This document shows, piece by piece, positions 1 to 62,300 of a stretch of DNA of 64,000 bases (position 1 is its first letter; each line of letters starts with the position of its first letter). Below the pieces are notes generated by a model. That model did no database searches and was not told where the DNA came from. It saw only the letters and a program-made list of their open reading frames with translations. The DNA comes from Leucoraja ocellata. Lineage: Eukaryota. The stretch covers positions 11,222,001 to 11,286,000 of the forward strand of contig JAWMAR010000023.1 in assembly GCA_036785375.1 (NCBI GenBank). The letters run 5' to 3'. Made by a program: the position numbers and the translations under genes.

Positions 1-245
1 TTAGCTCGGGGCAGTAATGCATTCTGACAATGGCACATTGGCGATTTAACCCAGGAGCAAACCCCCCTAGCGGGCTGTCTGTGTGGATGTCTGATTAGCT
101 AGATAGTCCAGGCTCTCTCCACAGATGCCTGATTAGGTTGGTAGCTCCTTCAAGCAACCCGTGTGGATTTGTCCCCGCAGATGAGAATATAAATTGGTTT
201 GTGTTACTGGCCTGAGTGACTGATCCCTGTAGGGGTCCCCAAACC

Positions 246-334
246 GGTTCATACACAGGACAGTCAAAAGTCCACACTGTGAACTTGGAATGACCCCAAA
301 TGCTGCCTTCCTTCGCAGGTTCAACCAGAGGACA
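246..334. promoter_or_regulatory. Candidate retinoic-acid-responsive enhancer: three DR5-type elements
   Basis: GGTTCA-tacac-AGGACA (246-262, +); TGAACT-tggaa-TGACCC = GGGTCA-N5-AGTTCA on minus (280-296, perfect consensus); GGTTCA-accag-AGGACA (318-334, +). Confidence 0.55.
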
Positions 335-691
335 GCCACAGTTTGTTACATAGATGTGATGCTTTCTGCCTGGGTAACAACAAGCAGATCAAACAAACCA
401 GCCATTTCACTCTGACAGTAGCACACAATCAGCGAGAGAATGCGAATACAACGTCCCCACTGCAGTCAATCAACGACAAGCACCTATTTAAATATGGGGA
501 CAATGGAGTGAACTTTATCACTGAAATAAACATGCAAAACACAGCTCACAGCAACAATATGCAAAGCACATCGCAGTCAATCTCAGCTTCCTCACAATAA
601 CATCTTCTTGTTTTTATATTTGACATAATGGAAGATGAATTTTGTGACTTTGTATTCTTTATGTAGTCTTATAAAATATGTCTTGTCAACA

Positions 692-996
692 TGTGGCACA
701 GCGGTAGAGTTGCTGCCTCACAGCGCCAGAGACCCGGGTTCGATCCTGACTATGGGTGCTGTCTGTACGGAGTTTGTACGTTCTCCCCGTGACCTGCATG
801 GATTTTCTCCGAGATCTTTGGTTTCCTCCCACACTCCAAAGACGTCCTGGTTTGTAGGTTCAGTGGCTTGGTAAATGTAACAAAAATTGTCCCTAGTGGG
901 TATAGGATAGTGTTAATGTGCGGGGATCGCTTGTGAGCGTGGACACGGTGGGCTGAAAGGGCCTGTTTCCGCGCTGTATCTCTAAACTAAACTAAA
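692..996 (+). mobile_element. tRNA-derived V-SINE (HE1-like), near full length
   Basis: A/B-box-like head (gtggcacagcggtagag...gggttcgatcc), V-domain-like core (gttctccccgtgacc...ggtttcctcccac), LINE-like 3' end and (TAAAC)n tail. Confidence 0.8.
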
Positions 997-1179
997 ATAT
1001 TATTTGCACAAGAAGTTGCTTCCTAGCTCGTCCTGTGTTTGGAGAATTGTGTACAGTTCCTATAATGGAACATTGTGGGAACATTGTTCCATTATGGGAA
1101 TGATGTGGGGGTTATGGAGAAGGGGCAGGTGAAGTTTATCGGAATGCCGCCTGGAATAGAGGGTATTACCTCGAAGGAG

Positions 1180-1570
1180 AGGTTGGAGAAACTTCTTCTC
1201 TGAAACACCAGAGGTTGAAGGGAGACCAAATCGAAGTATATAAAATTATGAGAAGCATAGATAGAGTGGTCAGTCGGTGCCTTTTTCTCAGGGTGGAAAT
1301 GTCAAAGGCTTGAGGGCATAGCTTTAAGGTCAGAGAGGGAAAGTTTAAAGTAAATGTGTGGGGCAACTTTCTTTTACATAGAGAATGGTGGATGTCAGAA
1401 TGTTCTGCCAAGGATGGTGGTGGAAGCAAATACAATAGTGGGACTTCAGATGCTTTTAGTTAGGCACATGGATATGCAACGATATGGATCACTGAGCTGG
1501 CAGAGGAGATTAGTTCAACTTGGCATCACGTTGGCCATAGACATTATGTTCCTCTGCTATGCTGTACTAC
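1180..1570 (+). mobile_element. CR1/HER1-type LINE 3' fragment, degraded
   Basis: aggttgaagggagacc...gaagtatataaaattatgaga...gggcatagctttaaggt motifs of the CR1 ORF2 C-terminus. Confidence 0.7.
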
Positions 1571-1924
1571 TGCACCTCCTTCACAACTGGCCTGAATATT
1601 GAGGGAATGTCACTGGATCCCACATCAAACGCCACGTGTCAGATTACTGGATCATCACAGGTTTATATCTGTTCTCTACGCACATAAACATGGATTATTT
1701 TGAAGTTACCGTTGGCTACAGTACATTCAGAGTTGGTGGTAACCCAGTATCGGACAGATTAAATCTCATTTGTGCCATTTTAGATGGAACATTTGCCATG
1801 TGTTAATATTCTTGTTTTCTAACCCTTAGTTTTGGCCCGATATCTATCATTTGTACTGTCTGGTTCTCAGTCATTTCTGTACCAGGTCACTTGGAACCAG
1901 GTTTACCCTACTCCAGGCAATATC

Positions 1925-2290
1925 CTGTTGAATGTCATAGAACCATTGCTCTGTACAACTCAGAAGTGGGCCCGACAGCACAACCTGCCCATTCCAACTG
2001 TGATCCCATTCACATGAATCCCATTTTGGTTGCATTAAGCCCATATCCTTTTATTTTCCTGCTAAATTACCTGTCCAAATGCCTTTTAAATGCTGTAATT
2101 CTATCGGTCTCTATCATCTCTCTCTGACACTTGTACCACATAACCACCACCCTCTGTGTGTGAAAAACTTACTTGCCCCTCAGATCACCTTTACATTTAT
2201 CCCCTCTCACTTAATCCTCTGACCTTTGGCTTTAGATTCCCCTCCCCAGCAAGAAGGATGGTGGCCATCCGTCCTATCCATGTCCCTCAC
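1925..2290 (-). mobile_element. CR1/HER1-type LINE 3' fragment, degraded
   Basis: Reverse complement of the same CR1 3' motifs (acctgtccaaatgccttttaaatg; accaccctctgtgtg). Confidence 0.65.
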
Positions 2291-2487
2291 AATGCTTGTT
2301 TTCTCTCATGGATCTATCTATAAGCCCTTTTAGTACCAGATAACAAGCAGCAGGATATTATTAGTGCCACACATTATAATTCACATTGTAAAGCAATGCA
2401 ATAAAAGTTTGCCAGCAAAAGTAAAGCATGAGAAAGTCATCCTTGTTTAACAAGAGGAAAAACACCAATGTGAAGGAAGGAAGGATG

Positions 2488-2690
2488 GAACTGCAGATGC
2501 TGGTTTAAACTGAAGATAGACACAAAATGCTGGAGGAACTCAGCGGGACAGGCAGCATCTCTGGAGACTGAGAATAGGTTGAAGACTAGGATTGGACTGA
2601 AGAAGGGTCTTGACCCGAAACATCACCCATTCCTTCTCTCCAGAGATGTTGCTGCCTGTCCCGCTGAGTTACTCCAGCATTTTGTGTCTC
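2488..2690. mobile_element. Penelope-derived fold-back insert
   Basis: Inverted arms (gacacaaaatgctggaggaactcagcgggacaggcagcatctctggag and its reverse complement), central ctgaagaagggtcttgacccgaaac, flanking cac/ctaatgtgaagg duplication. Confidence 0.75.
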
Positions 2691-3989
2691 ACACTAATGT
2701 GAAGGTGCAAATGCTCTCCAGTCAACAGAACTCTTTCAAAAATCACATAGCAATTTTTCCGATCCAATAGCCAGTTGGTTCTGAACAATAAACAGTCACA
2801 ACAGCTTTGGGGAACTTTACTTCACTGCTACAAAATCTACAGGACAATATTAATAGAATCAGATAAAAGTGCTTCAAGAAAATTGCTCTGCTGTTGATTA
2901 AACATTTGCTGCGGGATATCTGAATATTATCATGATATCTTTATGTATAATTTCTTAACCACACTGAATTGGCGAAGTTACAACATTTTGGAAAATAATT
3001 TGCAAAAATAAGGGATAGGTTTCCAACTGACCTCTCAATGCACTGTGGTACATACTGGGTGCTGTAAATTATTTGGGATGCAATCTTAAACCATTTAAAA
3101 TGGAACATCTGCAGATCCCTGCATAAAACTAGGCAGCTGCCTTTTCATCACTTTAGATGAAATGAGGCAACTCTGCGCAAACACTTTTTCATGATTGAAA
3201 GCTAATCCTGTGTTAGACGAGTTGCACAATAACATGAAAAATCAGGAGAAATGTAAACACAGCTTGGACATTTTAAGTAAGCGTATTCTGTATGCCTGCA
3301 TAGAAACGTATCAAAATTACATTATTCTCCTTAATAGAGCTACTAACTAATTTACAAACAATTTATAACTCACAATATCACAAAGAAGATAAGATTCACT
3401 GAAGCTGTCAAAATTACCAGTTTATTACATGGGCCAGGCTGGGGTGCTGCTAAAATTATATTTTTGTGAACAAAAATGGAAGAAATATATCTTTTTTTAA
3501 TAGATTAGTTTATTCAAATTCATGTGAACTGCAACAAGACAAATATTAAGTTAGTTTCTTTCCAGTGACTATATTTAGGATCAAAGTACTATTTAAAATG
3601 AAGAGATAGGCAGTGCAACAAAAGGGCAAGTGCAGAGCCAGCTGATGTGAACTTTCTTTCAACCTCAACTGCTTGCCAAGATAAATATGTTGAACTGCTC
3701 TCCACGGGTTACACTTAAACGGGAAGAGTTCACCTAGTGGAGCTCTGTGACAAAATGGAAAAGCAATTATACTTTATTTGAATGAGAACTGCACATCAGC
3801 TCAAACTGTTAGAAAACCACCGCCCTCTCTCTCCTTCACAAGATAAATGGCAACTACAGATAATGTTTACCCTCTTTGGATTCAAGACAATGTACAATTA
3901 GAAAAGCAGTTGCCTTTAATAACCTTTACAAATGGACAAAAAAGGGACACATTATTATACCTGACCTCCAGCACATCCTCTAGCAGCAC

Positions 3990-4890
3990 ATTCTCTCTAC
4001 GCATCGCCCTGCGTGCAAAAAAACTGCCCCCCTCAGGTCGCTTAAATCATTCTCCTCTCACCTTAAACCAAAGCACTCTAGTTTTAGCCTCCCCAAGCCT
4101 GTGCAAAGACTGTGGCTGCTAACTTTATCTGTATTCTTCATTATTTTATATACCTCTCTGTGTGGTCACCTGCAGCCTCTGCGCTCTTGGGAATAATGAC
4201 CCAGCCTACCCACATCTCCGAACTCAAACCCCCCAAACCCAGTAACATGTCAGTAAATCTCTTTTGCAGCCTTTCCAGTTTTCTGGCATTTTGATTTTCA
4301 GCAAGGCGACCAGAACTGTGTGCAGTACTGCAAATGTGACCCGACCAATGTCTTGTACAGCTGCAACATTGCATCCCAACGCCGGCGGTGAAGGCAAGCG
4401 GGCCAAACGCCTTCTCCATCACCCAGTCCACCTGTGTCACCACCTTCAACAACCATGTACAGGATTCCCAGGTCTCTCTGTTCCACAATACAGGCCAGGG
4501 CCATACCATTTACCATGCCAGTCCTGCCCAGGTTTTTCCTACCTACAAAAATGCCGTACCTTGCATTTTCTCAACTGGCATGCACAAAAACTTTTCACTG
4601 TACCTCTGTACACATGATAATAAATTAAACTGAACTGAAACTCTATTTGTCATTAGGCCCATGGTCTCATTGATCTAGATCCTGATGTAAGTGTAGATTA
4701 CCTTCTTTACAGTCCACTGTTATAGTCACCTGCACCTTGCTACACATGTCACCGACATTCACATCCAAACTTTGAATAAATAACGAACAACAGTGGACCC
4801 AGCACCCATCCCTGGGGCCCACCACTTGTTACAAGCCTCCTGTCTGAAAAACAACTCTCTATCACCACCCTCTGCTTCTAAACAATTTTG
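3990..4890 (-). mobile_element. CR1-type LINE ORF2 fragments, interrupted by a Rex1-like tail at about 4575-4640
   Basis: Translations LYKTLVGSHLQYCTQFWSP and KLERLQKRFTDMLLGL, typical of the CR1 RT C-terminal region. Confidence 0.75.
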
Positions 4891-4899
4891 TATTCAATT

Positions 4900-5145
4900 G
4901 TTTAAGAAGGAACTGCAGATGCAGGAAAATCGAAGGTAGACAAAGTACGTTTTTCACACACAGGTGGTTATGTGGTACAAGCTGGCAGAGCGAAATTATA
5001 GAGACAGATAGAATTACAGCATTTAAAAGGCATTTGGACAGGTATTTCAGCAGGAAAATAGAAGGAAGGCAAAAGTGCTGGAGAAACTCAGCGGTGCAGC
5101 AGCATCTATGGAGCGAAGGAAATAGGCAACGTTTTGGGTCTAGTT
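4900..5145 (-). mobile_element. Penelope-derived insert carrying an internal ~120-bp LINE fragment
   Basis: gtttaagaaggaactgcagatgc...ggagaaactcagcgg...ggaaataggcaacg, split by an inverted copy of 2046-2175. Confidence 0.7.
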
Positions 5146-5791
5146 GAGCTTCCTGACAGTATATTTCATTCAAAGTTATTCATTAATGATCTCCAATCAC
5201 TTTCATCACTACCACTGAGCTGGATTGCATAACCTCAGTTCACAAGGAAACCAATATTGCTGAGGTTGTCATCATAAAGTATTAGACACTCCATGTCAAC
5301 CTAGAAAATTCTCTGATGTGATCAATCTGGGTTTCTACGCTCACTCTGATTAGAAGGGCAACATGTATTCTAATTATTAACAAATAACTTGCATTTATAT
5401 AGAGACTTATATATAACTTGAGAATATTCCACAGCTTCCAAGTTGATAAACTACTTTTCAAGTACAATCCCAAATAAAATGCCGAGAAAAGACACTAGCT
5501 ATTTATCATGCTCAGTATTGGATTAGATTACAAAGGCCTGGTGAAAATAGTTTTTCCGTGTGGTTTTCAACTTGACGTATGTGCCATTCCATCCTTGTGA
5601 AATCCCACTGGAATTTCCCACTTTAATGTCTTCAAGATGAGAGATTTAACAACATAGCATAGGCTAAACTAGACTTGAACTGAAAACACTGATCATATAA
5701 CTAAAATTTACCATCTTCAAAGAGGAATTTCCCGACCAGTGGATGAAAATAAATCTAACAGCTGCATCATGACATTGTTCATCAAATGTAC

Positions 5792-5959
5792 CTTAGCAGC
5801 TGAGTTGGAGACTCCGTGCGTGACATTTCGTATTAAGCCTCCAACGTTTCCATACTTGATCAGCCCTGAAACGCCCTCCGACACATCATTCAAAAGTCCC
5901 ATTGGATTGCCCAGAAAATCCACCGAGCCCAGTATTCGAGTCGCCTGGCTCATCAATTC
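5792..5959 (-). CDS. VPS13D: VPS13D exon (~65), 168 nt, VPS13_C/ATG2_C-like region
   Basis: [56 protein letters not shown]; atag|...|gtacat; the next exon was not found in the window. Confidence 0.95.
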
Positions 5960-8900
5960 CTATCAACAAAAAGACATTTTACCATAAGAAATAACCAATG
6001 TATTAATGTCCATTTTTAGTAAGATTTGGCATTAACCTTTGGGTTACCGTTGAGAAGATAGTTGCATGACTGGCTCAGCTACCTCAACAGGCAACCACTT
6101 TGACGTGGGACTGACAAAAATCAAAATTTCAAACATGTGGCTCAATGGTTTCATAACCAGGTTCAAACCTAACCTCTGTTGCTGCATCTTTGGAGTTTGC
6201 ATGTCCTATCTGTGACCGAATGAGATTCCTCTAGGTTAGCGTGAAGAAGGGTCTCGACTCGAAACATCACCCATTCCTTCTCTCCAGTGATTCCTCCAGG
6301 TGGCTTTGATTCTCTCCCCCAACATCTCAATAATCATACCAGTTAATGTAGCAGCATCATTTGAAATATGAAATGTAAGTTACCCACCACTGATACATAT
6401 CTGATAAAGCTGATAAACGCTGGCTTCAGACAAACCGCCCAATAATTTCCTTTGTCCGAAGCAACTGCAGATGCAGGTTTAAACCATAGATAGACACAAA
6501 ATGCTGGAGTAACTCAGTGGGACAGGCAGCATCTCTGGAGAGAAGGATTGGGTGACGTTTCAGGTCAAGTCTGAAGAAGGGTCTGGACCCGAAACGTCAC
6601 CCATTCCTTCTCTCCAGAGTTGCTGCCTGTCCTGCTGTAATTTCCTTCCGTTGGCCTCTCTCCTCTAAACAGTCGAATAACAATTCACGATTTTCCAGTC
6701 TTCTAAACTCTAAAGATTCTTGAACGATGACTACTAATGCCGACAACTCGACAGCTATCTCTATAAGAAGCCTGGGGTGTAATCCATCTGGTCCAGGTGA
6801 CCAGATTTAACACTGATAGGTTTGAAGAAGGGTCCCAACCCAAAGCATCTCATGTCCATTTCCCCTTCATCTATGCTGCCTGACCCGCTGAGTTCCTCCA
6901 ACACTGTTTATTTGCTTAAATTCCTTGTATACATATTTGGATAATAACATTTATTCAATTCAAGATTCCAGCATTTGCAATATCTTGTGACTCCAGGTGA
7001 GATCAAGCCTTGAAACTAAAGCAAGCTCGTCCCTCCGGTTACGCTTGCTCTTCCAGTCAAGACTCACTCTGAAGCACACATTGCATGCTAAGTGCTGCAA
7101 ACAGTAATGTTAATTAGACACTGTTTGCCAATACAATGATGGAATCTCACCTTTCTTCATTATCACATTCCACCCTGCTGCCCTATGTCTTCCCCACTTA
7201 TCACCTGGAGATAGACAAACAAGCTGGAGAAACTCAGGGATGAGGCAGCATCTATGGAGCAAAGGAAATAGGCAACGTTTCGGGTCCAAACCCTTTTTCA
7301 AACTGATGTGAGGGTGGGGGCAGGAAGAAGAAAGGAAGAGGTGGAGTCAGTGGGCTGAGGGAGAGCTGAGAACGGGTGGTGAAAGTAGGGACCACCTGAA
7401 ATTAAAGTCAATGTTCATGCCGCGAGGGTGCAAACTGCCCAAGCGGAATATGAGGTGCTGCTCGTCCAATTTACGGTGGTCCTCACTCTGGCCATGGAAG
7501 AGGCCCAGGACAGAAAGGTCAGATTTGGAATGAGAGGGGGAGTTGAAGTGCTGAGCCATCGGGAGATCAGGTTGGTTATTGTGATCCGAGCAGAGGTGTT
7601 CGGCGAAGCGATCGCCAAGCCTACGCTTGGTCTCACCGATGTAGAGCAGCTGACATCTAGAGCAGCGGGTGCAATAGATGAGGTTGGAGGAGGTGCAGGA
7701 GGTTTTTACGAATGTGTGAGGAAACCAGAGCTTCTGGAGTAAACTCACGGGAAGAACGTACAAACTCAGCACAGACAGTACCTGTAGTCAGGATCGATCG
7801 GGCTCTCTGGTGCTGTAAGGTAGCAACTCTACAGCTGTGCCATCGTGTCGCTACTGAATGCCAATTATTTCACATGCAGAGCCTCCAAGAGGAAAAGGTA
7901 GACCAATTTCCTACTGTTGGACTAGGTATGTCTAAAGTGTTCATTGTATTTTAACCTTTGGTGGAATAATAATTTCTGTTTGACCAGCTCAGCTGCCCAC
8001 TCGAATTCTCACCTCCTTAAAATGCTTGAGAATGTCGTTGATAATGAACTCCTGTGTCTCATATGGGTGCACTCTGGTGTATGGGTCCAGGTGGATCACT
8101 GCATCCTCAAAGCGGATCAACCGGATGCCCAGCATGCCCTTCAAAGCCTGCAACAACAAACAAAAAAATAACACCAAACTGATACCTGCAAAAATAAGAG
8201 CAAAGGATGACTAATTCAGGGAGTTCAGAGTGAAAGCTGACTCGGAATATCATGTCAAAGCCAGAGCACTGCCTAAGGGAAAGTAACCTGTCAATTTTAT
8301 TCTGTTATCAACAGACATCTATGACTTAACCATGCCGTAAGATTAGGATGATTCATGTAGTTTGATTGTGTCATTTACAAAGGTCAAAAGGCTGACAGTG
8401 ATGATGGGAACCAGAAAATAATCACTAAGGACAAGGAAAGTCCCTTCGTCTGCAAGCTCATTCCTTCAGGGAGCCGACCCACAGTTTTAGTTTTAGTCTT
8501 ATTTCTCTTATTTCGTCGACTATTTCAAATATTTCACTGTTTCTGATCTCGGACATGTTTTCTTGGCTCAGTTACATGGCACTCGCGCCTTTCTTTCAAT
8601 AGTCGAATTATCAATTCCCATTCTACTGAAGAGATATTCTCAACTGACATTCCTGTGCAGCACTGAAAAACATTCATCATCCTTTGTGCGAGATGTTATT
8701 ACAAGGCTTTGTCTACGTTTCCAATATCTAGATGATATATGGCACCATTGGAACAACAGAGTACTTTTCCAAAATCATGATCAGAATTGCTCCTCGTCTC
8801 AAATATCATCAAAATTTGATATATTGTCTAGTTATATCAGTACCATGCGGGGCTCGTATAATGGAAAACAGTTGCTATATTTTCTTGTACATCTACAAAT

Positions 8901-11900
8901 TATGCTGATTCTATGACCAAACAAGTTGCAACAGAACTATGTCTCCATTTCCTTTTAATTTTCACTAATTTGTGATGCTGTAACTATAGATAGTTTCCCA
9001 CTTGTTTGATCAATGTCTATTGCTCTTAACCAGACCTCTGACAACTTCCACTGGAGTTCTATGGGCTCTGAAGTGGTTTATAATGTCATAAAGGAATAGT
9101 AGAATTAGGCCATTCGACCCATCTAGTCTACTCCACCATTCAATCATGGCTGACCTATCTCTCCTTTCCTAACCCCATTCTCTTGCCTTCTCCCTATAAC
9201 CTCTGACACAGGTACTAATCAAGAATCTATCCTTCTCTGCCTTAAAATTATCCACTGACTTGGCCTCCACAGCCTTCTGTGGCAAAGAATTCCACAGATT
9301 CACCACCCTCTGACTGAAGACCTGTAGCATGTGCAGACGGCCACAGTTCGAGCAAGAGACATTCATCAGGTAAGGTGGATGAACGGTAGGTGCTTTCCAG
9401 TTTAGATGGGGGCATCTTGGTCTGCATGGGCTAGTTGGGCCGTAGGGCCTATTTCCGTGCTGTATGACTATGCCACGTATAGCACGATCTTAAGAAACTC
9501 GCCTTGAATTCAACAGGTAGCTTGCTTGAAGTAAATACGCTCATCTTGATTTGTGGCATGCTGAGTTTGAGGTTTTCAAAGTAATAGCGCTTTGCTGTTC
9601 CACTTTTCTCATTGTTCTGTTCAGGGGCATTTTCATCTGGCTTTTCTACATCTGTGAAGGAAGGAGTTTAAGATATCAAAACTTTCACATCTGAAATGAA
9701 CTGCTCTTGTACACTGAACACAATTAATTAGTGAGGCACACATGGTTACTTAGATTAAAGCTTCACTGATCAATGGTAAATTAAGATGATGATATGGAAT
9801 CATTCGATAGTGCTGATGGAGGCTTTAATTAAATAGAACCCCTAGAGTACAAATCAAAAAGCAAAAAATATATTAAAAATGCAGGTGCTTAAAATCTAAA
9901 GAACAGAACAAAACCTACGGGTCAGACATTTGCGGAGAGGAAAAACAAACGGCGATATTTAGCTTTGTTTAGAAGTACAGGACAGGAAAAGGCCCATCGG
10001 CCCATCGATTCCACACCGGCCATCGATCACCCGTTCACACTAGCTCTACGCTATCCCACTTTCTCATCCACGCCCTTTACATTAACGGGAATCTTACTGA
10101 GGCCAATTAACCTACAAACCCACACGTGTCTGGGATGTGGGAGCAAACCTGAACAGCTGGAGGAAACCCATGGGAGTCACAGGTAGAACGTGCAAACTCC
10201 ATACAGACAGCACGTGAAGTCAGGATCAAGCCCGGGTCTCTGGCGCTGTGAGGCAGCAACTCTACCTATTTCATTGACCTGAAAGGTTGATTCTGCTGCT
10301 CTCTCCACTGATGCTGCCAGATGCATGAAATATTTTGTGCATTTCATTTCCGCGTTTAAATAACCATCTAAAAAAAGTTTATAGAAAGGCTACTCTGGAG
10401 AATTCACCATCTCAGTATGGCAACAGATTCCTCAGTCTTTGTCACGAGCTTATGACCCTGACCGGCCATGTTCGGCAGTTGTCATTCTGGCAAACACAAA
10501 GGAACCTTAATCCCCTAAATCAGACTCACCCACCATTAGACAACGTGTTATTTATAATATAGACAAACTTTATTATATACAAGGAAGTTGTCAATTTAAA
10601 ACAGAAAGTCAAACCACTTTGTTACTTTTTTAATCTTCGCCTTGGGTTTAGACTCGACAAGTACCACACCTGCCTTCTACCCCCCATCCCCCCACCCCCC
10701 CCCCCCCCCACCCATCCCCCCACCCATCCCCCCACCGCCACCACCCAGCCACCTGAAATCCAGTAACCGAATAAGTAAGCTGCACCGGGCAACCATATAA
10801 ACTGCTCATGGATTTCACAAGCAATTACAAATATATTTTTTGCTCTATCAGTGTAATGTAAAAAGCCTGGATAATTTCTGGGTGAACATCACTGAAGCAG
10901 TTTAGTTGCAGTTAGAGCCCACAATGAGTGCCACTGATTGAACTCAAATTGATTGACATTTTATAACACAGATTATAATGATTAACATATATATCCTGGA
11001 GTGATTTGAAGGTTAGAAAATTAATCAGAATTAAGATACAGAATTTTTTGAACCCCTCAATTAGATTATGTTGCAACTTATTCTGGTATATGTTTTGCTT
11101 CATATACAAATCATCCATCCCCCCAGTTAGATTCTAGCCTGCAGGTGAGTGCAGATATTCTCCATTACATTGGAGTGTCCATGCATTTGTATTTTAATGA
11201 CCCGTACAACTGTATTCCACTAAGCTGAACAAGTGTCTAATAATATTTCAATCTTATTTCCTTCGCATACCTATATCATAAGCTGAAAAAATATTTTTCT
11301 AGATTTGGCGAGATCTGAAAAAAAGGTATTTTCCAACCTTCAAAACCCAATCAACAGTGGAAATCATCAACAAACTATAAACAAAAATGCACTCCAGCAT
11401 CAGGGCTGGATGGTTGGGATTCAAGGGTTGGGTATGATCCTGAAACATACAAACCTCTCCACAGTAGTTTCAAAAGAAGAAGAAAATGCGGTCTTAAAAA
11501 TAGCACAGACTATCGTGTAATAACAGAGTACAAATGGGAACATATGTCTATCTGTTTCAACTTTACAGCAATAAACAGTTTAAGATGTTAACCACTCTTC
11601 CAAGAGTAAGTAAAGTCACCCATATGCAGTAGACCCTGGGTTCACCTTCTATCATGGTTTGAATTAGTGGACTTCAGCCTCCCTGTCCTCAAGATGAAAC
11701 AAGATAACCATATTAATCAGAAGTGGCTTTCTGATAGATGTTGTCATGGTAAATGTGTTTGATACAGGCCTAATGCATGGTTGTCTGAGTGCAACTCCCA
11801 GACCAGTACATAAACATTTTGTATACGACAACTTTGTGCCGCTTGCAAAGTCTACCGTAAACATTGTTTTTGACCCAAATGCAGTACAGGTGCACAACCT

Positions 11901-20900: not shown

Positions 20901-23900
20901 AAGAGTGGCTTTTCCAAATAAGAGGTGGGTGGTGACAAACTGTCTGGACTGGTGTTTGAGTTTGAGGTTGCCTGGGGAATGGGTGGAGATATATCGTGGT
21001 TGCATATAAGAAAGATCACTCAAGTAGCAGAAACTGTTGGAAGAAATATTGGTAGAGGCTGGACTAGAGGAAGGGATGAGGATATTCAGGAACAAGTGCA
21101 CCAGAAGCTGATTGAAAATAACTGCTGTGCAGCACGGAGCCCATGGCAAAGTTGGAGGGAGAGGAAAGAATTCTTCTTAACAGATGATGATTAAGATGGG
21201 GAACTATGCTCTGTTGATGTGTGGATTCATAATCCAGAAGGAAAAAGTCACCTGTTAAAAATATATTCTGCAAGGAAATATGAAGAAGATACATTTAGGT
21301 TAAGCAGCCGCTTGTGATCAGCATACCTGCAACACACGTGTAGGACCATCAGGAATTACTCGCAAACAGAGAACTCCTGAACCAGGTCTCATTTTCTGGT
21401 TGATGAACTGTTGCTCCACTGGAACTGGTTCCAGGCCAAGGGTTGGTTCTGGACCCAGCACCACCTCTGCTCCATCGTACAAGCCTGAAATGCCTTTGGT
21501 TATCTAGATAAATCAGAGACTTAAGATTCTTTGCACCACACTCACACACTCAAATAAACAAGTTCCAGTTAGAACACAACTAGACCAAAGTGTTGTACAT
21601 ATGAGTTGTATGATTATTTGAAATGCATATACAAGGGCAGCACAGTAGTACAATGGTAGATATGCAGCCTTATAGTGCCAGAGACACAGGTTTGATCCTG
21701 ACTACGGGTGCTGTCTGCGTGGAGTCTTTATGTTCTCCCTGTGACCATGCGGGTTTTCTCCTGGTGCTCTATTGTCCTCCCACATTCCAAATAATGGTTA
21801 ATTGGCCATTGTAAATGTCCCCGAGTGCGTAGGATGCAAATGGGATAACACAGAACTAGTGTACGGGGAGATATATTGGGCCGAAGGGCCTGTTTCCACG
21901 CTGTATCTCTAAACTGAACTTGCTGGCTAAAGCATCAAAAGCAAAATCAATCACAGTGACGTTGTGGCCAAATGGTCTGTTCCTGTACTGTTCTCTGTTC
22001 TGCTCAGTTGTCAGTATTGTGCTAACCTAGTTTGCCAATACCTTAAAATTAAAATGCTCATTCTCTTGTTCAAATGCCTCCATGCCTTGCTCCTCCCATT
22101 GCTGTAACCTCCACTGAAATCCGATTCCTAACTTTAGCATCCTCCCTCTCTCTGGTGTGTGTGGATTCAAGCTTGTAAGTGTCAGATCCTGTTTGCCAGC
22201 CCCTTTATTAGAGCCTCTTAAACCCTGTATCCTAAAGTGCAGCACTAAGCTTTTAATGACCATTCCCAAATATCTCTCTCTTTATCAGTGTCATTTTTTC
22301 TCCTTGGTTCTGCTTCTGTGAAACGCCTCAGGGTGTCTTCCTGTGTTAAAAATTGCCAGTCGTTGCTGTAAACCTGACCTGTTGTTCAAGTTCCGTAACT
22401 GTGAATGTAACGTTCCCAAAAAGTTAAATCAACAGATCTGAACAAATCCAGTAAATCAGCTTGTCTACCTCAGGTGTGCTCTGCACAAAAGAACATTACT
22501 ACCTGGGGAAAAGCAACCACAGCTAAAATAAATGACAGGCTGTAACATGTTGCAAGCAACAAATCACCAAGTGTCACCACTAAGTGGTTAGCTTTTCTGT
22601 GTCCGCCAGCTTTGGCTTCTTGCCTAAACCCCTCTCAAGTGCTCGTTTTTCTAGTATCAAGTAAAATAATTTCAAACTGCAGACAGTGAGTTTGAGTCTC
22701 GGTTTCATTTATCTCAGCCAGTTGAGGTGCTGCAGTTGGACCGAGTGTCCCTCACTCAGGAAGAAGAAAAATGTGTAACTTATTAATTCTCGCGGAAACA
22801 GGCAAATGCCGAGGAGAACAGAATCAGGATCAGGATCAAGGGTGAATTCCAAAATGTAATAATGCTTGTGAGAAACATTTGCAAAGACATGGTGCTGGAG
22901 GAAATCCCCATGAGAATGCAAACAGAAATGACAAAAGTGCTTTGAAGGTGAAATTAACTGCCCAGTGCTGGACAGACTAGTTTTCTCAATTATCTCTGCT
23001 TTGAAGAATTTTTTAGATATTTGGGAAATCAGCACGGATTCATAAAACACAGGTCTCTTTTGGAGGTGAAAAAAACCCGGCAGTCTGAGAAATGTCTATG
23101 AACATTACCTACATGTGTGGAAGACACTTGATAAAAACCTCTCATGGAAGACTCATGGAAAGTGAGCTAAGTATTGAGCCAGCTATGAAATGACTGGGTG
23201 AATAGGCAGGTCACCCAATTCATAAAACGTAGCATGTGACATCTTGCAAGGATCTGCCACGGAGTCTCAACTATTTACTAAATAGCGGGGAATATAAAAA
23301 CTGACTCTAAAAGCTTTTTAAAATATGTAAAAAAGGAAAAGATTAATGAAGACAAATGTAGGTCCCTTACAGTCAGAGACAGGTGAATTTATAATGGGAG
23401 ACCAGTTAAACGAGTACTTTGGTTCCGTCTTCACTAAACGAGGGGTTATGCTGCCAATGTTGTTGCTCTTTACCTGTACTACCATTCTTGTTTGGCCACA
23501 GCTCAGGCGCCCATCTTGGAAATACCAACACTGGCTGGTGCCCCGACGTCGGTCAGGATTTCTCAGCATGAGTGGCTCATACCTACAACACACAGAGGAG
23601 GACAACATTTTATTTATGTCTATGCACTTATTATAGGTACAGTAAGTAANNNNNNNNNNNNNNNNNNNNNNNNNNNNNNNNNNNNNNNNNNNNNNNNNNN
23701 NNNNNNNNNNNNNNNNNNNNNNNNNNNNNNNNNNNNNNNNNNNNNNNNNNNNNNNNNNNNNNNNNNNNNNNNNNNNNNNNNNNNNNNNNNNNNNNNNNNN
23801 NNNNNNNNNNNNNNNNNNNNNNNNNNNNNNNNNNNNNNNNNNNNNNNNNNNNNTATATGTTCATTATTTGAACTGCCAGTTTGTAATCACTGAAGATTTA

Positions 23901-29900: not shown

Positions 29901-32900
29901 CATCCATTAGGCGTACACATAGCAACTGATCATAATCATTCCTTGGCCAATGGAACACTACACTAGCTCCGGGTAGAGTTGAAATATAACCATCTGGATT
30001 TTGAGTCCCCTGAAAAAGAAAGTTTACATTCATTGTTGTGTCAAGAGTCAAGAGCGATTNNNNNNNNNNNNNNNNNNNNNNNNNNNNNNNNNNNNNNNNN
30101 NNNNNNNNNNNNNNNNNNNNNNNNNNNNNNNNNNNNNNNNNNNNNNNNNNNNNNNNNNNNNNNNNNNNNNNNNNNNNNNNNNNNNNNNNNNNNNNNNNNN
30201 NNNNNNNNNNNNNNNNNNNNTCCATTTATGTTTTTTTTTTAAATGGTGTTTCATCAAATGCTTCAATTCTAATAAAATACTTGTGAAATGCAAATTCTTG
30301 GTTTAAAATCCAATTAGGAGGCAAACTACATCGACTGGTGGTTCAGGTGAAAAATGCAATTACTGAAGCAGTTAAGTGTCATGTTAGTTGTACTACATCC
30401 TCATTCTTAATGGACGAGCAAAATGAGTGGAATGACTTTTGTTATGATATCTATAGCTGGCAAAAACATATGAAAGCAGGGTATTCTGAAGCTAATTTGT
30501 TCAAAGCAAAGTCCCAGAAATCACTAAAGAGATGAAACTAGTGGAATTCAATGAAATATCCATTGGGTGTACACATAGCAACGGACAGTTAGTGTGTGCT
30601 CTTAGCTCCATCTGCCTGATCAGACTTTGCTGATCTATTAAGGACAAGCTTTAACAGTATTATTCTCTTACCACCTTGTTGAAGTGTTGGGCAAGAAGTA
30701 TTCAAATTTCAGATTGAAACCCAAGTCACAATTTACGTGGCGAGGATTATGAAATGAAACATATTTATAAACACAATTCAGCCACTGGACTGATCCTTAG
30801 CGGAAACTATAATGCTATTGCTAAAGACGAAAGAAATTGAGGTTTTTAAATTTAGAAAAAGGCGAATGAAAGTTGAGAATAAGAGGAACATTGCGAAACT
30901 TAAACCACGGTAGGCCAAATGACACAGATTAGGACTGACATCTGCAAATTCACATAAACACTGACACACAGATAGAATACTCGTCCAGGCAATGGAGGTG
31001 CATTTGAATGTCATGAGAACAGGACTGTAGCATCTTTCCTAATGGATGAACTCAAATGAGCTGAATAGCTCTTGTTATCTGCATCCATCTTGTACTCACA
31101 CAGGCGTACACACATAGCAAAGCAGTTGGGGGAGAGAACCAAGTAGCGCATTGAAAGTGTAATATTCATACAATAGATAAACGTTTTAGAAAGGATAAAA
31201 AGCAGTTCTACAATATCACTGATGGGCTAAATTGATAACCAATTAAAAGCTACTAACAATGTATAACACTGATGGAATGAGCTCATCATATTACATCAAC
31301 TGTTCCAGCAAGCCTGCCCTGGGTCTGCCTAACTTATTCATGTTGCTGATTCTGCATCACTACAGTTTGCAAACTTGTTGACGCAAAACCTTTGTGCAAA
31401 TGTCCATACCCATTATCAAATTCTTTTCTCATCTATTTTAAGAGAAAGGCTAATGCAGTACAGGCAGGAATTCATCAAGTTTGCTCATGTGAAATAAAAT
31501 ATTTGCAGTAAGTTCCAAGTTTCTGCTGCTTTTAGTAACACATTCCTTTCTAAAACACAATTTAATGTGTCCTGTCTACACAGCATCAGAAAGCGCAAGC
31601 CTACCAGGCCTCGGGCAAACTCCCGTTGGGCGAAAGCCAGTTTGTGAGAGGATTTGTTGTCCAGTAGATATCTGGGTGCAAACGTTACAATGTTGGTATC
31701 TCTGTAACGGCCTCTACCCTTCCGGATATCAATTCCTGAAACAGAAAAATAAAAGCATTTAGAAACAACAAATTGCAGATGCTGTTTTTCGCAAAAGGAC
31801 ACAGAGTGCTGGAGTAACTCAGCAGGTCAGGCAGCATCTCTGGAGAACATGGATAGGTGACGTTTCGGGTTTGGACCCTTCTTCAGTAGGGTTTCGGGTC
31901 AGGACCATTCTTTAGCATATTTTCTGATGCAAGGCCCTGATCTGAAATTCCACCTACCCATGTTTGCTGGACCTGCTGAGTTACTCCAGCACTTTGTGTC
32001 CTTTAATATAAAAGCATGTTTGGAGACCCAGTAACCTAAAGCAGGAGTAGAGGGATAAAAACATTATTGTTGGCACTGGACAAAACCCGTTAACAGCTGT
32101 GCTTTTGCACATCAACATTCTATTCATCAACACCTGAACATATCTCAATTAAGTCAGTAACAAACTTTATTCAGCCTTACCAATACTGTAAATAAGTCCT
32201 GGTCTGTTCCCATGTTGAATCACTTTCACGGCTCGGACACCGCTGCCTCCATCTGGGGAGAACTCCTGACACCACCCGGGTACTGCATCTGGGTGGATCC
32301 CTTTTCCAATCCTCATGGTACACCTGCAAAGATCATCAGAAATGTGAACAATGTTGGTGTGTCTTGGTTAACATTTGATCAATTTCCCTCCTGAGATAAA
32401 TAGTTCTATCCTATCATACAGTTACACAGCTAAAAGTGATGCAGGGACCCAGGAGATGACCGATGCTGGAATGTTGTGCAAAAAAACAACTGAAGGTGGA
32501 TCTGGGGACCACGAGGCATCTGTGGAAGAAGATGTACAGACGACGTTTCTAATCGAGACCCTTCTTCGAACCTAGGATAGAGATAGCTGGTGGAAAAAAG
32601 TAATTGTTGATCCTTGAAGCTCATGGTTAAAATAATGTGTAGAAAGCGTCAACATTTTCCTTTCATCAAATGGCCGTTAACAGTCTTTACATTAGGTCAT
32701 GAGGTCTTTACAATGGTTCAGTAAAAAGAATAATGAAAGTGTAACGCTCCACAAAAGGGTATTTCATAATTACATTAAATCTGCATTATAGAACATGTTT
32801 ATTGTTTCAGGATGGGTGAATGATGATGAGGGTGGGGAAAAGAAATAAAGATGGGAATCTGCAGGTAAAATGAGTGAGATACAGGAGGTGGCAACTTTCA

Positions 32901-56300: not shown

Positions 56301-59300
56301 ATGTTCTCCAGCTTTGGATTGCAGCAGTGCTTTACGACAATCATCCAGGCTACATTTTCATTCAGATTCTTTTTTAGTAAAAGCCTCTTTGGAAATGGGT
56401 CAGGAACATTGCAAATCACAAATTCCAGGAAGCCAAATGGTTTTAAAATGTCTTTTCATAAACTATTTGATAAATGAGTCTTAATTTTTCCTCCTCTCCT
56501 CAAATTCCTGAGAATAATTTTCCATTCCAACATTAGGAGCATGACCAAAAATAATATACTCTACAGTTGCAATTACATGTATGTTCTCTACCTTTGGATT
56601 GCAGCAATGCTTTACGACAATCGTCCAGGTTAAATCCAAGGTCTTGGAGGCGATCCAGCTGCAACTCTGCAATAAAAGAAAGAAAATGCTGCTGTATAAT
56701 TAAAACTAACAATCTCTGCTTTTCACATGGGTTAAAGGCAATTTAAGGATTGTACATAAGCCTCTATATCACCTACGTTGTATATACAATTAGTACAAGC
56801 AACAGTTTTTATTCTAGAAAGGTAACCCCGTGGGAAAATGTGCAAAGCTGCAAAAAAATTACAGTCATTATTCAGCCACCATAATATGACGGTTCTTGAC
56901 TGATTTCAAATGGAGAGGATTAATATCAAACAGCTAAGTCCCAATTGGAATTTTCCCCACTTTCAAATCTTATAGACTTGCAATTTATAACGTGACTTAG
57001 TCAGCTGCCAAAAAAAATCCGGCAAACGTTTGGATTTTGACTTCAATTAACCATGGAGAGATTTGTAAATTACTCAGTTAGGAGCTAATTCAAGTAATTT
57101 ATAAAGAAGAATATTTTCTTTAATGAGGCAGTCATGATCTGATGAACTGACTATCTTTTAACTGGAGTTTAAAAATAGTCAAGAATGATACAATGACCTC
57201 ACTTGCCCAGAATTAATTGAGTCTAGACAATTTGAATCCAACTTGCATTTCTGAATGTTGACATAAAAAAAACAACTCATATACTTGGATATTAACTGGG
57301 AAACTTGTTAGGAAAGAATTAAAGAATGAGTAAATATGATAACTGCTATTTTATCAATGGTTCAATGGTACTTCAATGGTTCAGTGGTTCACTCATCTTA
57401 CTCATTCTTTAAGGTACACAAAAATGCTGGAGAAACCCAGCAGGTGAGGCAGCATCTATGGAGCGAAAGAATAGGTGACGTTTCGGGTTGAGATCCTTCT
57501 TCAGACTGATGTATACTGATGTGCTCATGTATAGAATGCTTTGACTGGATAGCATGCAAATAAAGTTTTTCATTGTATCTCAGTGTATGTGACAATATTA
57601 AAGCAATACCAATTCCAATTATAATTTGTCGAATACCATATTGGGAGCAGCTTGAGGGGCATGCAGACTACTGACAAAAAGGATAATCAATAAAGGGGTT
57701 CTGTTGCTTTGCCTATTACTTACCAAGGACAGGATCTATTTGGTGTCCACTTGTTTCTTTTTTCCCAGATCCTGTTGTTGAGATGCCTGTCAAACGAAAT
57801 GAGTTGGTATTGCCATTCATTGACCCAGGATCAGGCATGACAGGCACTGCAGTCGTCTGCTTCGGTATAGACTTCACTATTGCCAGAAATAGCTGTACAT
57901 CGTTGTATGAAAGTCTGATGTCAAGACTGGAGAATTGAATCTGAAACAAGAACAAAATAAGTTTAAGATTACGACAGATATCTATGGGCTTCTTTTGTGT
58001 ATCTATCTATAGTTCTATTATATGCATTATCTAGTCTTCTTTCTATTTTTGAACATGAAAAATGAAGCCTAGATTGAAAAGATATCAGTAATATCTCTTA
58101 AATTATTCGGTCTTCATTTTGAATTGTCATTGAAGCTCATCACTTTTGGGGCAAGAGTCTTCTGCCTCATATCCTTAGAGATGCAGCACAGAAACAGGTC
58201 TGAAGAAGGGTCTCGACCCAAAAAGTCACCCATTCCTTCTCCCCAGAGATGCTGCCTTCCCGCTGAGTTACTCCAGCTTTTTGGGTCTATCTTGGACAGA
58301 AACAGGCCTATTGGCCCACCAAGTCCGCGCAAACCAACTATCACCCCGTACACCTGCACTATCACTAGGAACAATTTCACAATTTCAAGAAGCCAATGAA
58401 CCTATAAACCTGTACGTCTTTGGAGTGTGGATGCACCTGGAGGAAACTCACGCGGTCACAGGTAGAACGTACAAACTCCATACAGACAGCATCCGTAGTC
58501 AGGATCAAACCCGGGTCTCTGACACTGTAGGCAGCAACTCTACTGCTGCGCCATTGTGCCACCCATTCTTCTTATTACATATTCTAAGACTATATACTGA
58601 TTTGCCAACAAACTACAGCACATGATCTATTTTAGACCAGCTGGCATTGACATCACCAAGTCAGATCTATAGTGTTTCCCAGTCGTTTTTCAAGACTAAC
58701 TTTCACTCTCATTTTCTTATTCTTGAAAAATGACAGAGAAAGACTGTTAAAGGGAGACATTATTTCAGCTTTCCATGGCATGGAAAAGACTCTTCTGCAA
58801 AAGGGTTGGAAGATTCTGGCCTCCATCTTGGAATGAGGCAGTGGCATGAAGTAAATGATCAGAATTTAGGATTATGATGCTCACAGATTGCACACTTGCC
58901 CTTCCTTTGGATATAAACGGACTATATTTCTGCTCTCTCGGACCGATATTGCCAAATGGGATACAGCAATCTTGTTAGAACCAATAAGATCTGGAACTTG
59001 TAAAGGCAGAAATTTGTATGCGAACCATTGATGTTCAGCCATTTGAATGGCCAATTTCAAAGCATGTGCTTTCAGACACATTTTATACACTGACTTGATG
59101 TGAATGGTTGGAGCATCTATTTTAGCTTTTTACTCTTGATGCTGTGCTAGTCTATTCAACCCAGTTTAATATCTGTAAGTGTTTCATCCAGATAAATGAG
59201 GTGGTTTAGCAATGGAAATAAGACAAATTCCAACTAATTTGCCTGTGTAAAGATAATGTATAATTTTTAATGTTTTGCTTCTCTTTTCTTTCATCTAAAT

Positions 59301-62300
59301 TCATCCACCTCCATATATCCTCTCTCTCCTTTCCCACCTAGAGACCTTCAGTGTCAATTTCATGAACTTTGGCTGCCCTCCAGTAGCTCAGTCAAGTGTC
59401 CATTCTTCCCTTGTAAAGCTAGACAGAGCCGCACACAGCATGCCTTCACTATGATAATTCCACTGAGGATAACCTCATCTTGTCTTAATCTTTAAAAGCT
59501 GAATAAATCTGCAAGTGATTATAATGCATAGCATAAAACAGTAACCACATCCAAAATCCAACTCCTCCTATCTTCTTCAATCTGTTCTCCACCCTCAACT
59601 AAAAGTACCACCACATGTTTGCTTTGAACCCAGAAAATTACAGTGGCTTTATGACGAGGGTTTCAGACTCTGGTGTGTCACACCAATGTCTCATGCCACA
59701 GCCAGGGGAAATTAAAGCTTTTAAAACTAACAAATAAAAATTGCTTCATTTACTGTTGATCTTCAAATTCGTCTCAATCTTATGTTAGCAGTGATGTAAA
59801 ATTATATTCACTCGTTATTGTTCTTGGAAATAGATGTTATAAATGAAGGCCCTTGATATCGAGCTTTGTGTAACAGTGATGCTCATTATAACTTAGGTCA
59901 AAGAGGGCAAAAGCTCATTGGAATTGTAGGACAAAACTTACGTTCAGACTTTCTTAATCTTTACTCCAAATTCGTGATTTATTATACTATAATGTTCAGT
60001 TCAGGAGCACTAAATATATGATGTATTTGTCCCTGGTGGATTACTGCTCTGCATTGATCAAAATGTTAAATGGTTGAAGTTAAAAACTTCTTGGTTTCTG
60101 TTTGATTTAAAAACTCTTCTTTTCAAAGTCAAAAGCCTTTTTATCATCCTTCGTGATTTATGATTAATATCGCAATAACTTACATCTGGAAATCCTTTAC
60201 GACTTTGGTTTGACTTCCTCTGTTTCTCTATTCTGCAATTCATAAAATCTGGTGTCTAACTGCCTCAAGGTGATTTGCAAATTATGAGTATTGCTTAAAA
60301 GAGCAAATGAAGCAAGCAGGGAAAATGAAGTAGCAATTTTATCCATGATTCTTGCATGTGATGCCCTGAGTAATAAGGGCTGGAAACTACAGTAGTGTCA
60401 GGGTTAGAGAAAGGTCAGCAAAGCAACTCCGCACAATTGCCACTGGCAGTTTGACATTTTCCCTGCAATCAGTATTTCAATCTCATGTGCTATTCATCTT
60501 TGGTTTTCTTATAAAACATATGTATGGAAAAGCAAGACACAGTACTTTAATGTTAAATGTGCATTCCTTTACAAAAGTGATCTAATAAACAACCATTTCA
60601 ATTGGAATCTCTTCAATCACTAGACTGTAAATAGCTGCTATTCCAAATAAAACACTGCTTGAATTTCTCTCTACTCTTCTTTAAACCCAAAATTACTGAT
60701 GAATGACTTTAAAGGCTTCTTCAGTAATATACTGACAAAAATATTGATTTCATAGAAACATAGAAATTAGGTGCAGGAGTAGGCCATTCGGCCCTTCGAG
60801 CCTGCACCGCCATTCAATATGATCATGGCTGATCATCCAACTCAGTATCCCGTACCTGCCTTCTCTCCATACCCTCTGATCCCCTTAGCCACATCTAACT
60901 GCCTCTTAAATATAGCCAATGAACTGGCCTCAACTACCCTCTGTGGCAGAGAGTTCCAGAGATTCACCACTCTCTGTGTGAAAAAAGTTCTTCTCATCTC
61001 GGTTTTAAAGGATTTCCCCCTTATCCTTAAGCTGTGAGCCCTTGTCCTGGACTTCCCCAACATCGGGAGCAATCTTCCTGCATCTAGCCTGTCCAACCCC
61101 TTAAGAATTTTGTAAGTTTCTATAAGATCCCCTCTCAATCTCCTAAATTCTAGAGAGTATAAACCAAGTCTATCCAGTCTTTCTTCATAAGAGTCCTGAC
61201 ATCCCAAGAATTTCAGGCAGAATCCCAACATTTAAAAAGGATAGAACCTGCTGGAATCACAATAGTTCAGGCAGCATCTGTGGAAATGGAAACTGTAAAC
61301 ATGTCCAGCATTTCTATTATTTCAGATTTCCGGCACTGCAGATTTAAAAAATGTTAATCTACCCTCAAATGTATGTCTCTTTCAAGTTGAAAGATGCAAG
61401 AGTCAATTGCAGGAGCTTACACACAGTATTCGAAAAAAAGGGAACAGAGAATTATGGGCCTGTGCCACTTAGGCTATTTTTAGGCGACTGCCGGTGACTG
61501 TCATAGCCGTAGCAGGTCACTGAAAAAATGGCGACTGGACCTCCCCTTCGACATAAAATTTGAAATAGAATCATTTACTTTAACAAAAAAAACCCCCGAA
61601 GTCAACAAAAAAAAACCGAAGTCAGCACCAGCGACAACTTACATCACCTGGGGACAACTACGACAGCACCTACGTAAGGAGAAGTCAAGCTGCGCTCATT
61701 GGTGTCAAACCCACTGTCACCGACTGTCTCAGAAAATGTTTCAACATGTTGAAAATCCAGCGGCGACCAGAAAGACACTATGACTCTTTGGGCGACTGAG
61801 GAGACTACTCATGACAATACAGGCAACACCCCGGCGACAGCCTAGTTACCTGTAGTTGCCTACAAAAATAGCCTAAGTGGAACAGGCCCTTTATTTTCCT
61901 TCTTCTTAATTAAGAAGCTAATCTGATTGTTGCACTCCAAACTACTGCATAGCTAAGAACAATTAACAATCACAGATTGACAATCAAATCTCAGAAGTCA
62001 TCTGTTAAAATGATACCTCAAGTACTGGTGGGAAATCCTCACTACCAAAGGCATCTAGTAGACCCGAGCTCCTCTGGTAGATAGGGTTGCCAATCAATTC
62101 TATCTGCACATTTACAGGATCGATAATGGACAATGCAGTCTCTTGCTCACTGCCAAGTCGACATGAAAACACCTGTAAATAGGGTAAAATAGCACAGGTT
62201 TAGAATCACAATCTGGAACACAAAAGGGGAAAATAAATCTAGCCAGTGTTTGCTGCAGTTTTAAAATATGAAAATATCAATGCAATTTATTTTTTTAAAG

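Follow-up and report, generated by a model that had tools for sequence, protein, structure and literature searches.

Heterodimers of RXR and RAR bind direct repeats of the form RGKTCA-N5-RGKTCA (DR5), with co-repressors when no ligand is present and with p300/H3K27ac when it is. One of the genes connected with this response is DHRS3, whose product reduces retinaldehyde to retinol. In the mouse, RAR acts directly on Dhrs3, with RAR-bound elements at -1356, at -978 and in intron 1, further ones being allowed for (PMC11808460), and no distal Dhrs3 element is discussed in the main text of that paper. A 2022 paper stated that no functional Dhrs3 RARE had been demonstrated (PMC8950952). The clusters cRE1, cRE2 and cRE5 (PMC11808460) resemble the element described here in being groups of RAREs through which retinoic acid (RA) feeds back on its own metabolism, but they lie within about 1.4 kb upstream of Dhrs3 or in its intron 1, whereas the present element lies far downstream, in another gene. 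A distal Cyp26a1 RARE enhancer (PMC13738024) offers the same kind of feedback and was tested by deletion.

The closest described system is a pair of DR5 'RARE enhancers' given for mouse Dhrs3 by Berenguer et al. 2020 (PMC7259794, Table 2 and S3 Table), namely GGGTCA TTCCA AGTTCA at chr4:145034810-145034826 and GGTTCA TCGGG AGGGCA at chr4:145034847-145034863 (both mm10), scored as conserved in rodent, human, bird, reptile and frog, and not in fish (zebrafish). The H3K27ac peak holding the pair (chr4:145033496-145035860) decreases in Aldh1a2-/- trunk (log2FC -0.65), as does Dhrs3 mRNA (log2FC -1.11), and no second RA-regulated gene is given for the Dhrs3 TAD. Across the RARE set of that study, 19 of 24 fall in mouse RAR ChIP peaks, a set-wide count that is not specific to the pair. 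The name Vps13d has 0 occurrences in the main text or the readable supplements.

In zebrafish, dhrs3a (+) and vps13d (-) are arranged tail to tail, separated by a single small gene, and eight Myc-RARaa ChIP peaks (2637-2644), obtained with an injected tagged receptor and added RA, are spread across the locus (PMC8608873). Peak 2644 (Zv9 chr23:22,012,045-496) is the strongest of the eight (-log10 p 125, 14-fold), with a -log10 q of 120 against 81 for the next best, if the file-5 score is read as 10x -log10 q. It overlaps an ATAC peak whose signal under RA is 8.6-fold that under BMS493 (ratio of three-replicate means; FDR 9e-9), annotated to vps13d intron 63 of 67. Two additional RAR peaks are found in vps13d intron 65 of 67, and peaks 2641-2644 are missing from the CNE table. 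The same study describes, in skap1 intron 4, a conserved RAR-bound element serving the HoxB cluster and tested in transgenic zebrafish (PMC8608873). It is comparable to the present element as a vertebrate-conserved RARE of DR5 type in the intron of a neighbouring gene, assigned to an adjacent RA target; it differs in its HoxB target and in its transgenic test, whereas the present element is a triple DR5 and a sequence-based candidate.

The stretch analysed here, called the window, covers 64 kb of the Leucoraja ocellata genome, and holds three DR5 motifs in an intron of VPS13D. This cluster very likely corresponds to the mouse pair, and it is probably a RAR enhancer that acts mainly on DHRS3, as predicted from its sequence and its orthologues.

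The DR5 cluster and its host intron

A motif scan of the window recovers the three DR5s (Table 1) that an earlier note had reported from the letters, with the same start-to-start distances of 34 bp (DR5-A to DR5-B) and 38 bp (DR5-B to DR5-C), so that all three fall within 89 bp. Each consists of two direct-repeat half-sites separated by exactly 5 nt, and the mismatched half-site of both outer motifs is AGGACA. The central motif is the sole perfect DR5 among the 14 matches with at most one mismatch in the 64-kb window. The half-sites of the cluster are additionally arranged as IR5, DR6 and DR7.

Table 1. Features at the cluster and in its surroundings (positions in the window; a point marks features without a strand)
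Feature	Position	Strand	Description
DR5-A	246-262	+	GGTTCA-N5-AGGACA, 1 mismatch to RGKTCA
IR5-like arrangement	269-285	.	1 mismatch; half-site common to DR5-B
DR5-B	280-296	-	GGGTCA-TTCCA-AGTTCA, 0 mismatches
DR5-C	318-334	+	GGTTCA-N5-AGGACA, 1 mismatch to RGKTCA
Low-substitution single-copy block	191-446	.	1/21 substitution sites
SINE-like dispersed repeat	693-996	+	depth ~1e6-1e7; adjoins the element, outside it
Part of VPS13D host intron 65 (human numbering)	1-5791	-	3' end beyond position 1
VPS13D exon 65, last in window	5792-5959	-	56 codons, ~95% identical to amniote VPS13D

The chance of such an arrangement was estimated from 300 simulated sequences, each of 64 kb and drawn from a third-order Markov model. 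The simulated windows hold on average 0.14 perfect DR5s, in line with the figure of about 0.1 given in the note, and 4.3 sites with at most one mismatch. A pair of DR5s within 100 bp appears in 23 of the 300 windows and a triple in none (0/300), while a Poisson estimate for the triple cluster comes to about 1e-4. The three-DR5 cluster is beyond chance, as had been claimed, with the caveats that the motif and the allowed mismatch were picked post hoc and that DR5-A and DR5-C share 17 of 21 bases, a likeness that stops there, since their flanks differ. The two could therefore stem from one local duplication instead of being independent draws, which makes the chance figure for the triple somewhat flattering.

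The host gene was identified by tblastn with vertebrate VPS13D proteins, which reveal collinear minus-strand exons between 62190 and 5792. Exon 65 terminates at a GT donor, with 277 VPS13D residues still to come (the commonest value, seen in 23 proteins), and the C-terminal tails of 40 proteins give no credible further VPS13D exon in 1-5791 (tblastn; best E 0.017, on the wrong strand). The cluster sits about 5.5 kb past exon 65, inside intron 65, and its placement deep in a VPS13D intron is thus borne out by the collinear exons. DHRS3 itself is absent from the 64-kb window; by the mouse and zebrafish gene order it would lie beyond this end of the window, the direction that the note had given.

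The human VPS13D gene comprises 70 exons and its protein 4388 residues; codons 3130 and 3227 belong to exons 46 and 47, respectively (PMC11121673), and the exon numbers used here were counted from these two anchors. The human residue letters at 2896, 3130 and 3227 disagree with the proxy proteins and those at 4221-4222 agree, so the numbering rests on exon boundaries and not on exact residues; the proxies are probably non-human VPS13D proteins with small indels. In a protein tree of 15 rows, which include no named cartilaginous fish, gar or coelacanth, the VPS13D of the window falls outside teleosts plus amniotes (moderate support, 87/85), a position that is compatible with the chondrichthyan origin assumed in the note but is no proof of it.

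Copy number and constraint were derived from contigs of four sequencing runs, each under a different organism code and chosen out of 22 listed, compared over 1-1200 and about 97-100% identical to the window. In each of the four runs, one contig spans 1-716/720 at a baseline depth of 27-50, with 1, 5, 21 and 7 differing letters, which makes the element single copy and rules out a dispersed repeat over 1-680. The same region has no second match below E 0.4 elsewhere in the 64-kb window. The SINE-like repeat begins only at 693 and has five more blastn matches at four places (7696-7842, 10102-10266, 21655-21920 and 58299-58553); the description of the cluster as lying in unique, non-repeat sequence is upheld.

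In 1-680, 21 distinct substitution sites are listed, one of which falls in 191-446 against 7.9 expected (scan-corrected P ~0.011), a count of listed changes from which four per-run differences (three in run X8, one in X18) are missing, as they were not itemised. The lone listed change in this block, at position 253 in run X8, affects the spacer of DR5-A, and the half-site bases of all three DR5s are unaltered among the listed changes of the four runs. This invariance is not significant by itself (P 0.32 for the 36 half-site bases), because the compared relatives are close; nor is the count for 246-334 alone (P 0.22). The block is likely the extent of the candidate enhancer.

Another stretch, 39-175, for which none of the four runs has a listed substitution, carries two CTGATTAG homeodomain-like motifs, near 92 and 130 and 38 bp apart, and may belong to the same candidate enhancer. 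Within the constrained block, TGACAG at 413-418 is presumably a MEIS-type motif, although a lone 6-mer is weak.

Other searches at the element concerned copies in distant collections, RNA and coding sequence. When metagenomes are scanned for the 17-mer joined to the adjacent half-site, there are 0 matches. The 17-mer alone gives 96, none of them with a second DR5 within 70 bp or with flank similarity above background; they were rejected as vertebrate copies and attributed to chance, since in so large a collection a match to the 17-mer has no meaning unless its position agrees as well. No Rfam family is found at the element (1-700), and RNA folding of 39-446 on the minus strand gives a z-score of 0.52, with no structure signal. 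The open reading frames over the element (95-388 minus, 283-600 plus) are stop-to-stop frames with no credible VPS13D tblastn match, and a coding role for them was discarded.

Comparison with the mouse and zebrafish elements

DR5-B is identical to the first mouse Dhrs3 RARE in 17 of 17 bases, spacer included. Exact matches of a given 17-mer are expected about 7e-6 times in 64 kb, and a match of the spacer by chance has a probability of about 1e-3. DR5-C agrees with the second mouse RARE at 13 of 17 bases, a score reached at just 2 places in the window, and the start-to-start spacing of the matched pair is 38 bp in the window and 37 bp in mouse. In both species, the second motif lies toward the 5' side of VPS13D, the mouse strands being deduced, as the table gives none; the comparison consists of 34 bases from this strandless table, with the flanks outside it. 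There are two motifs in mouse versus three here, and DR5-A has no counterpart among the two mouse Dhrs3 rows of S3 Table (PMC7259794).

The host gene agrees as well. In mouse, 79.8 kb separate the start of Dhrs3 (+) from the low end of its neighbour Vps13d (-) (PMC3560948, Table 2), with Tnfrsf1b 320 kb off. The coordinates place the mouse pair within Vps13d, about 62 kb from its 3' end (arithmetic that mixes mm9 and mm10); its distance to the Dhrs3 H3K27me3 peak, taken as the promoter, is 141 kb. As motif identity is accompanied by agreement in order, spacing and host gene, orthology of the cluster with the mouse Dhrs3 RARE pair appears very likely from these comparisons.

The element is, therefore, essentially already published, since two of its three motifs were listed in 2020. 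What is new is probably the conservation reaching cartilaginous fish, as the published range ends at frog, and this suggests an origin before bony vertebrates; the third DR5, the assignment to intron 65 of VPS13D and the match by position with a zebrafish RAR peak are also new. In the open-access literature, no cartilaginous-fish report of the element or of dhrs3 was found. The result is a useful pointer and a conservation extension, not a new kind of element: the window picks out the distal element flagged in mouse and offers a target of roughly 250 bp.

In zebrafish, five exons follow vps13d intron 63, just as five follow intron 65 of the 70-exon VPS13D. Peak 2644, the strongest RAR peak at that locus, matches the cluster by position only, in the corresponding intron of the same host gene when introns are numbered backwards from its 3' end, and with tail-to-tail dhrs3a synteny, of which the window holds the VPS13D side only. 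It lies outside the CNE table, and the authors' pipeline assigned its ATAC peak to si:ch211-145d10.5 and not to dhrs3a (PMC8608873).

Proposed action on DHRS3 and competing readings

The proposal starts from a group of three DR5s that spans 89 bp of a constrained, single-copy intron block and which sequence, order, spacing and host gene strongly suggest to be the orthologue of the mouse pair. RXR/RAR heterodimers are predicted to occupy up to three of these sites, and RA binding would swap the co-repressor for p300 at the cluster, raising DHRS3 transcription. The enhancer would reach the DHRS3 promoter through a loop spanning the 3' exons of VPS13D and the body of DHRS3, the two genes being tail to tail, across about 141 kb in mouse and 54 kb in zebrafish. 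DHRS3 would then convert retinaldehyde back to retinol, limiting RA synthesis and closing a negative feedback loop; the enhancer, if real, would let retinoic acid switch on its own brake. Sites 34-38 bp apart may leave space for three heterodimers, and could give a stronger or steeper response. The enhancer is likely to act alongside the promoter-proximal RAREs and not as the sole driver; given that RAR-bound elements exist near the Dhrs3 promoter, it is probably one of several.

The view of the cluster as a RAR enhancer for DHRS3 had already been put forward in the earlier note, and it gains support from the RARE listing and H3K27ac in mouse, and from RAR ChIP and ATAC in zebrafish; it is no new discovery. 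The idea of an ancient DHRS3 enhancer is backed by published data as regards the enhancer and a link to DHRS3, while the choice of DHRS3 as the target relies on proximity. The status of VPS13D as a bystander is uncertain: the mouse TAD, without another RA-regulated gene, agrees with it, but zebrafish vps13d is raised by RA. Within the open-access literature (subscription papers being outside its scope), no reporter, deletion or contact/looping test of the element was found for any species. A VTE GWAS variant near DHRS3 was assigned by proximity and carries no link to the present element (PMC12495096).

An alternative, judged unlikely, is that the cluster consists of conserved nuclear-receptor sites that form a redundant shadow element or serve other receptors, and do not mainly mediate RA activation of DHRS3. 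COUP-TF/NR2F are AGGTCA-binding receptors, and COUP-TF binding is promiscuous; the half-sites can also be read as IR5, DR6 and DR7. Redundancy would be in keeping with the RAR-bound, eRNA-producing elements near the mouse Dhrs3 promoter (PMC11808460), with eight RAR peaks across the zebrafish locus and with the modest change of H3K27ac in mouse (-0.65). Against this, DR5-B has the same 5-nt spacing in mouse and window, down to the letters of the spacer, and RA affects the chromatin of the site in mouse and, judged by position, also in zebrafish.

That the RAR-bound enhancer has VPS13D as its target, alone or together with DHRS3, seems quite improbable. Zebrafish vps13d is RA-upregulated (log2FC 1.71 at 3 and 8 somites; FDR 7e-4 and 1e-5; PMC8608873), and the distance from peak 2644 is 45 kb to the start of vps13d and 54 kb to that of dhrs3a. 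However, vps13d is not among the BMS493-lowered genes, a list of which dhrs3a is the top row (PMC8608873), and the mouse Dhrs3 TAD is given without another RA-regulated gene. The zebrafish rise could be real co-regulation, but it could also be enhancer RNA or dhrs3a read-through counted as vps13d; the main text of PMC11040003 does not mention vps13d.

A chance or neutral arrangement, such as a small local duplication, part of a repeat or a structured RNA, draws on the 17/21 identity of the outer sites and on the post hoc choice of motif, but it is highly improbable and already largely refuted by the 17/17 agreement with a mouse element that was published independently and lies in the same gene, the single copy in 4/4 runs, the lack of an Rfam match in 1-700 and the folding z-score of 0.52.

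If the cluster is a RAR enhancer of DHRS3, a bolder and rather doubtful reading would make VPS13D intron 65 the seat of an ancestral jawed-vertebrate master enhancer, with a triple DR5 of which two motifs are listed in mouse, diverged too far to be aligned yet still RAR-bound in zebrafish, and needed for full DHRS3 induction. Were this true, it would explain the lasting tail-to-tail order of DHRS3 and VPS13D, and deep-intronic VPS13D deletions would become a candidate cause of DHRS3-type retinoic-acid embryopathy.

Other features of the window

DR5-like sites with at most one mismatch are more frequent in the window than expected (14 versus 5.0 +/- 2.5), and none of 100 shuffles reaches 14. 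Leaving out the cluster, 11 such sites are present, three of them in the host intron (3028-3044, 3648-3664 and 5665-5681, all on the minus strand). Rfam on 1-6000 gives two weak, sub-threshold matches at 2533-2674. Two stop-free frames on the minus strand, 7347-7787 and 60842-61231, are presumably retrotransposon fragments, which we take to resemble a GIY-YIG endonuclease and the C-terminus of a CR1-type LINE. Two runs of N (~23640-23850 and ~30060-30225, 365 bases in total) are located in the introns adjoining exons 57 and 52. In the GC-rich segment 12165-12892, within a VPS13D intron, identical peptide blocks recur in the open reading frames of both strands, which suggests a tandem repeat of about 220 bp.
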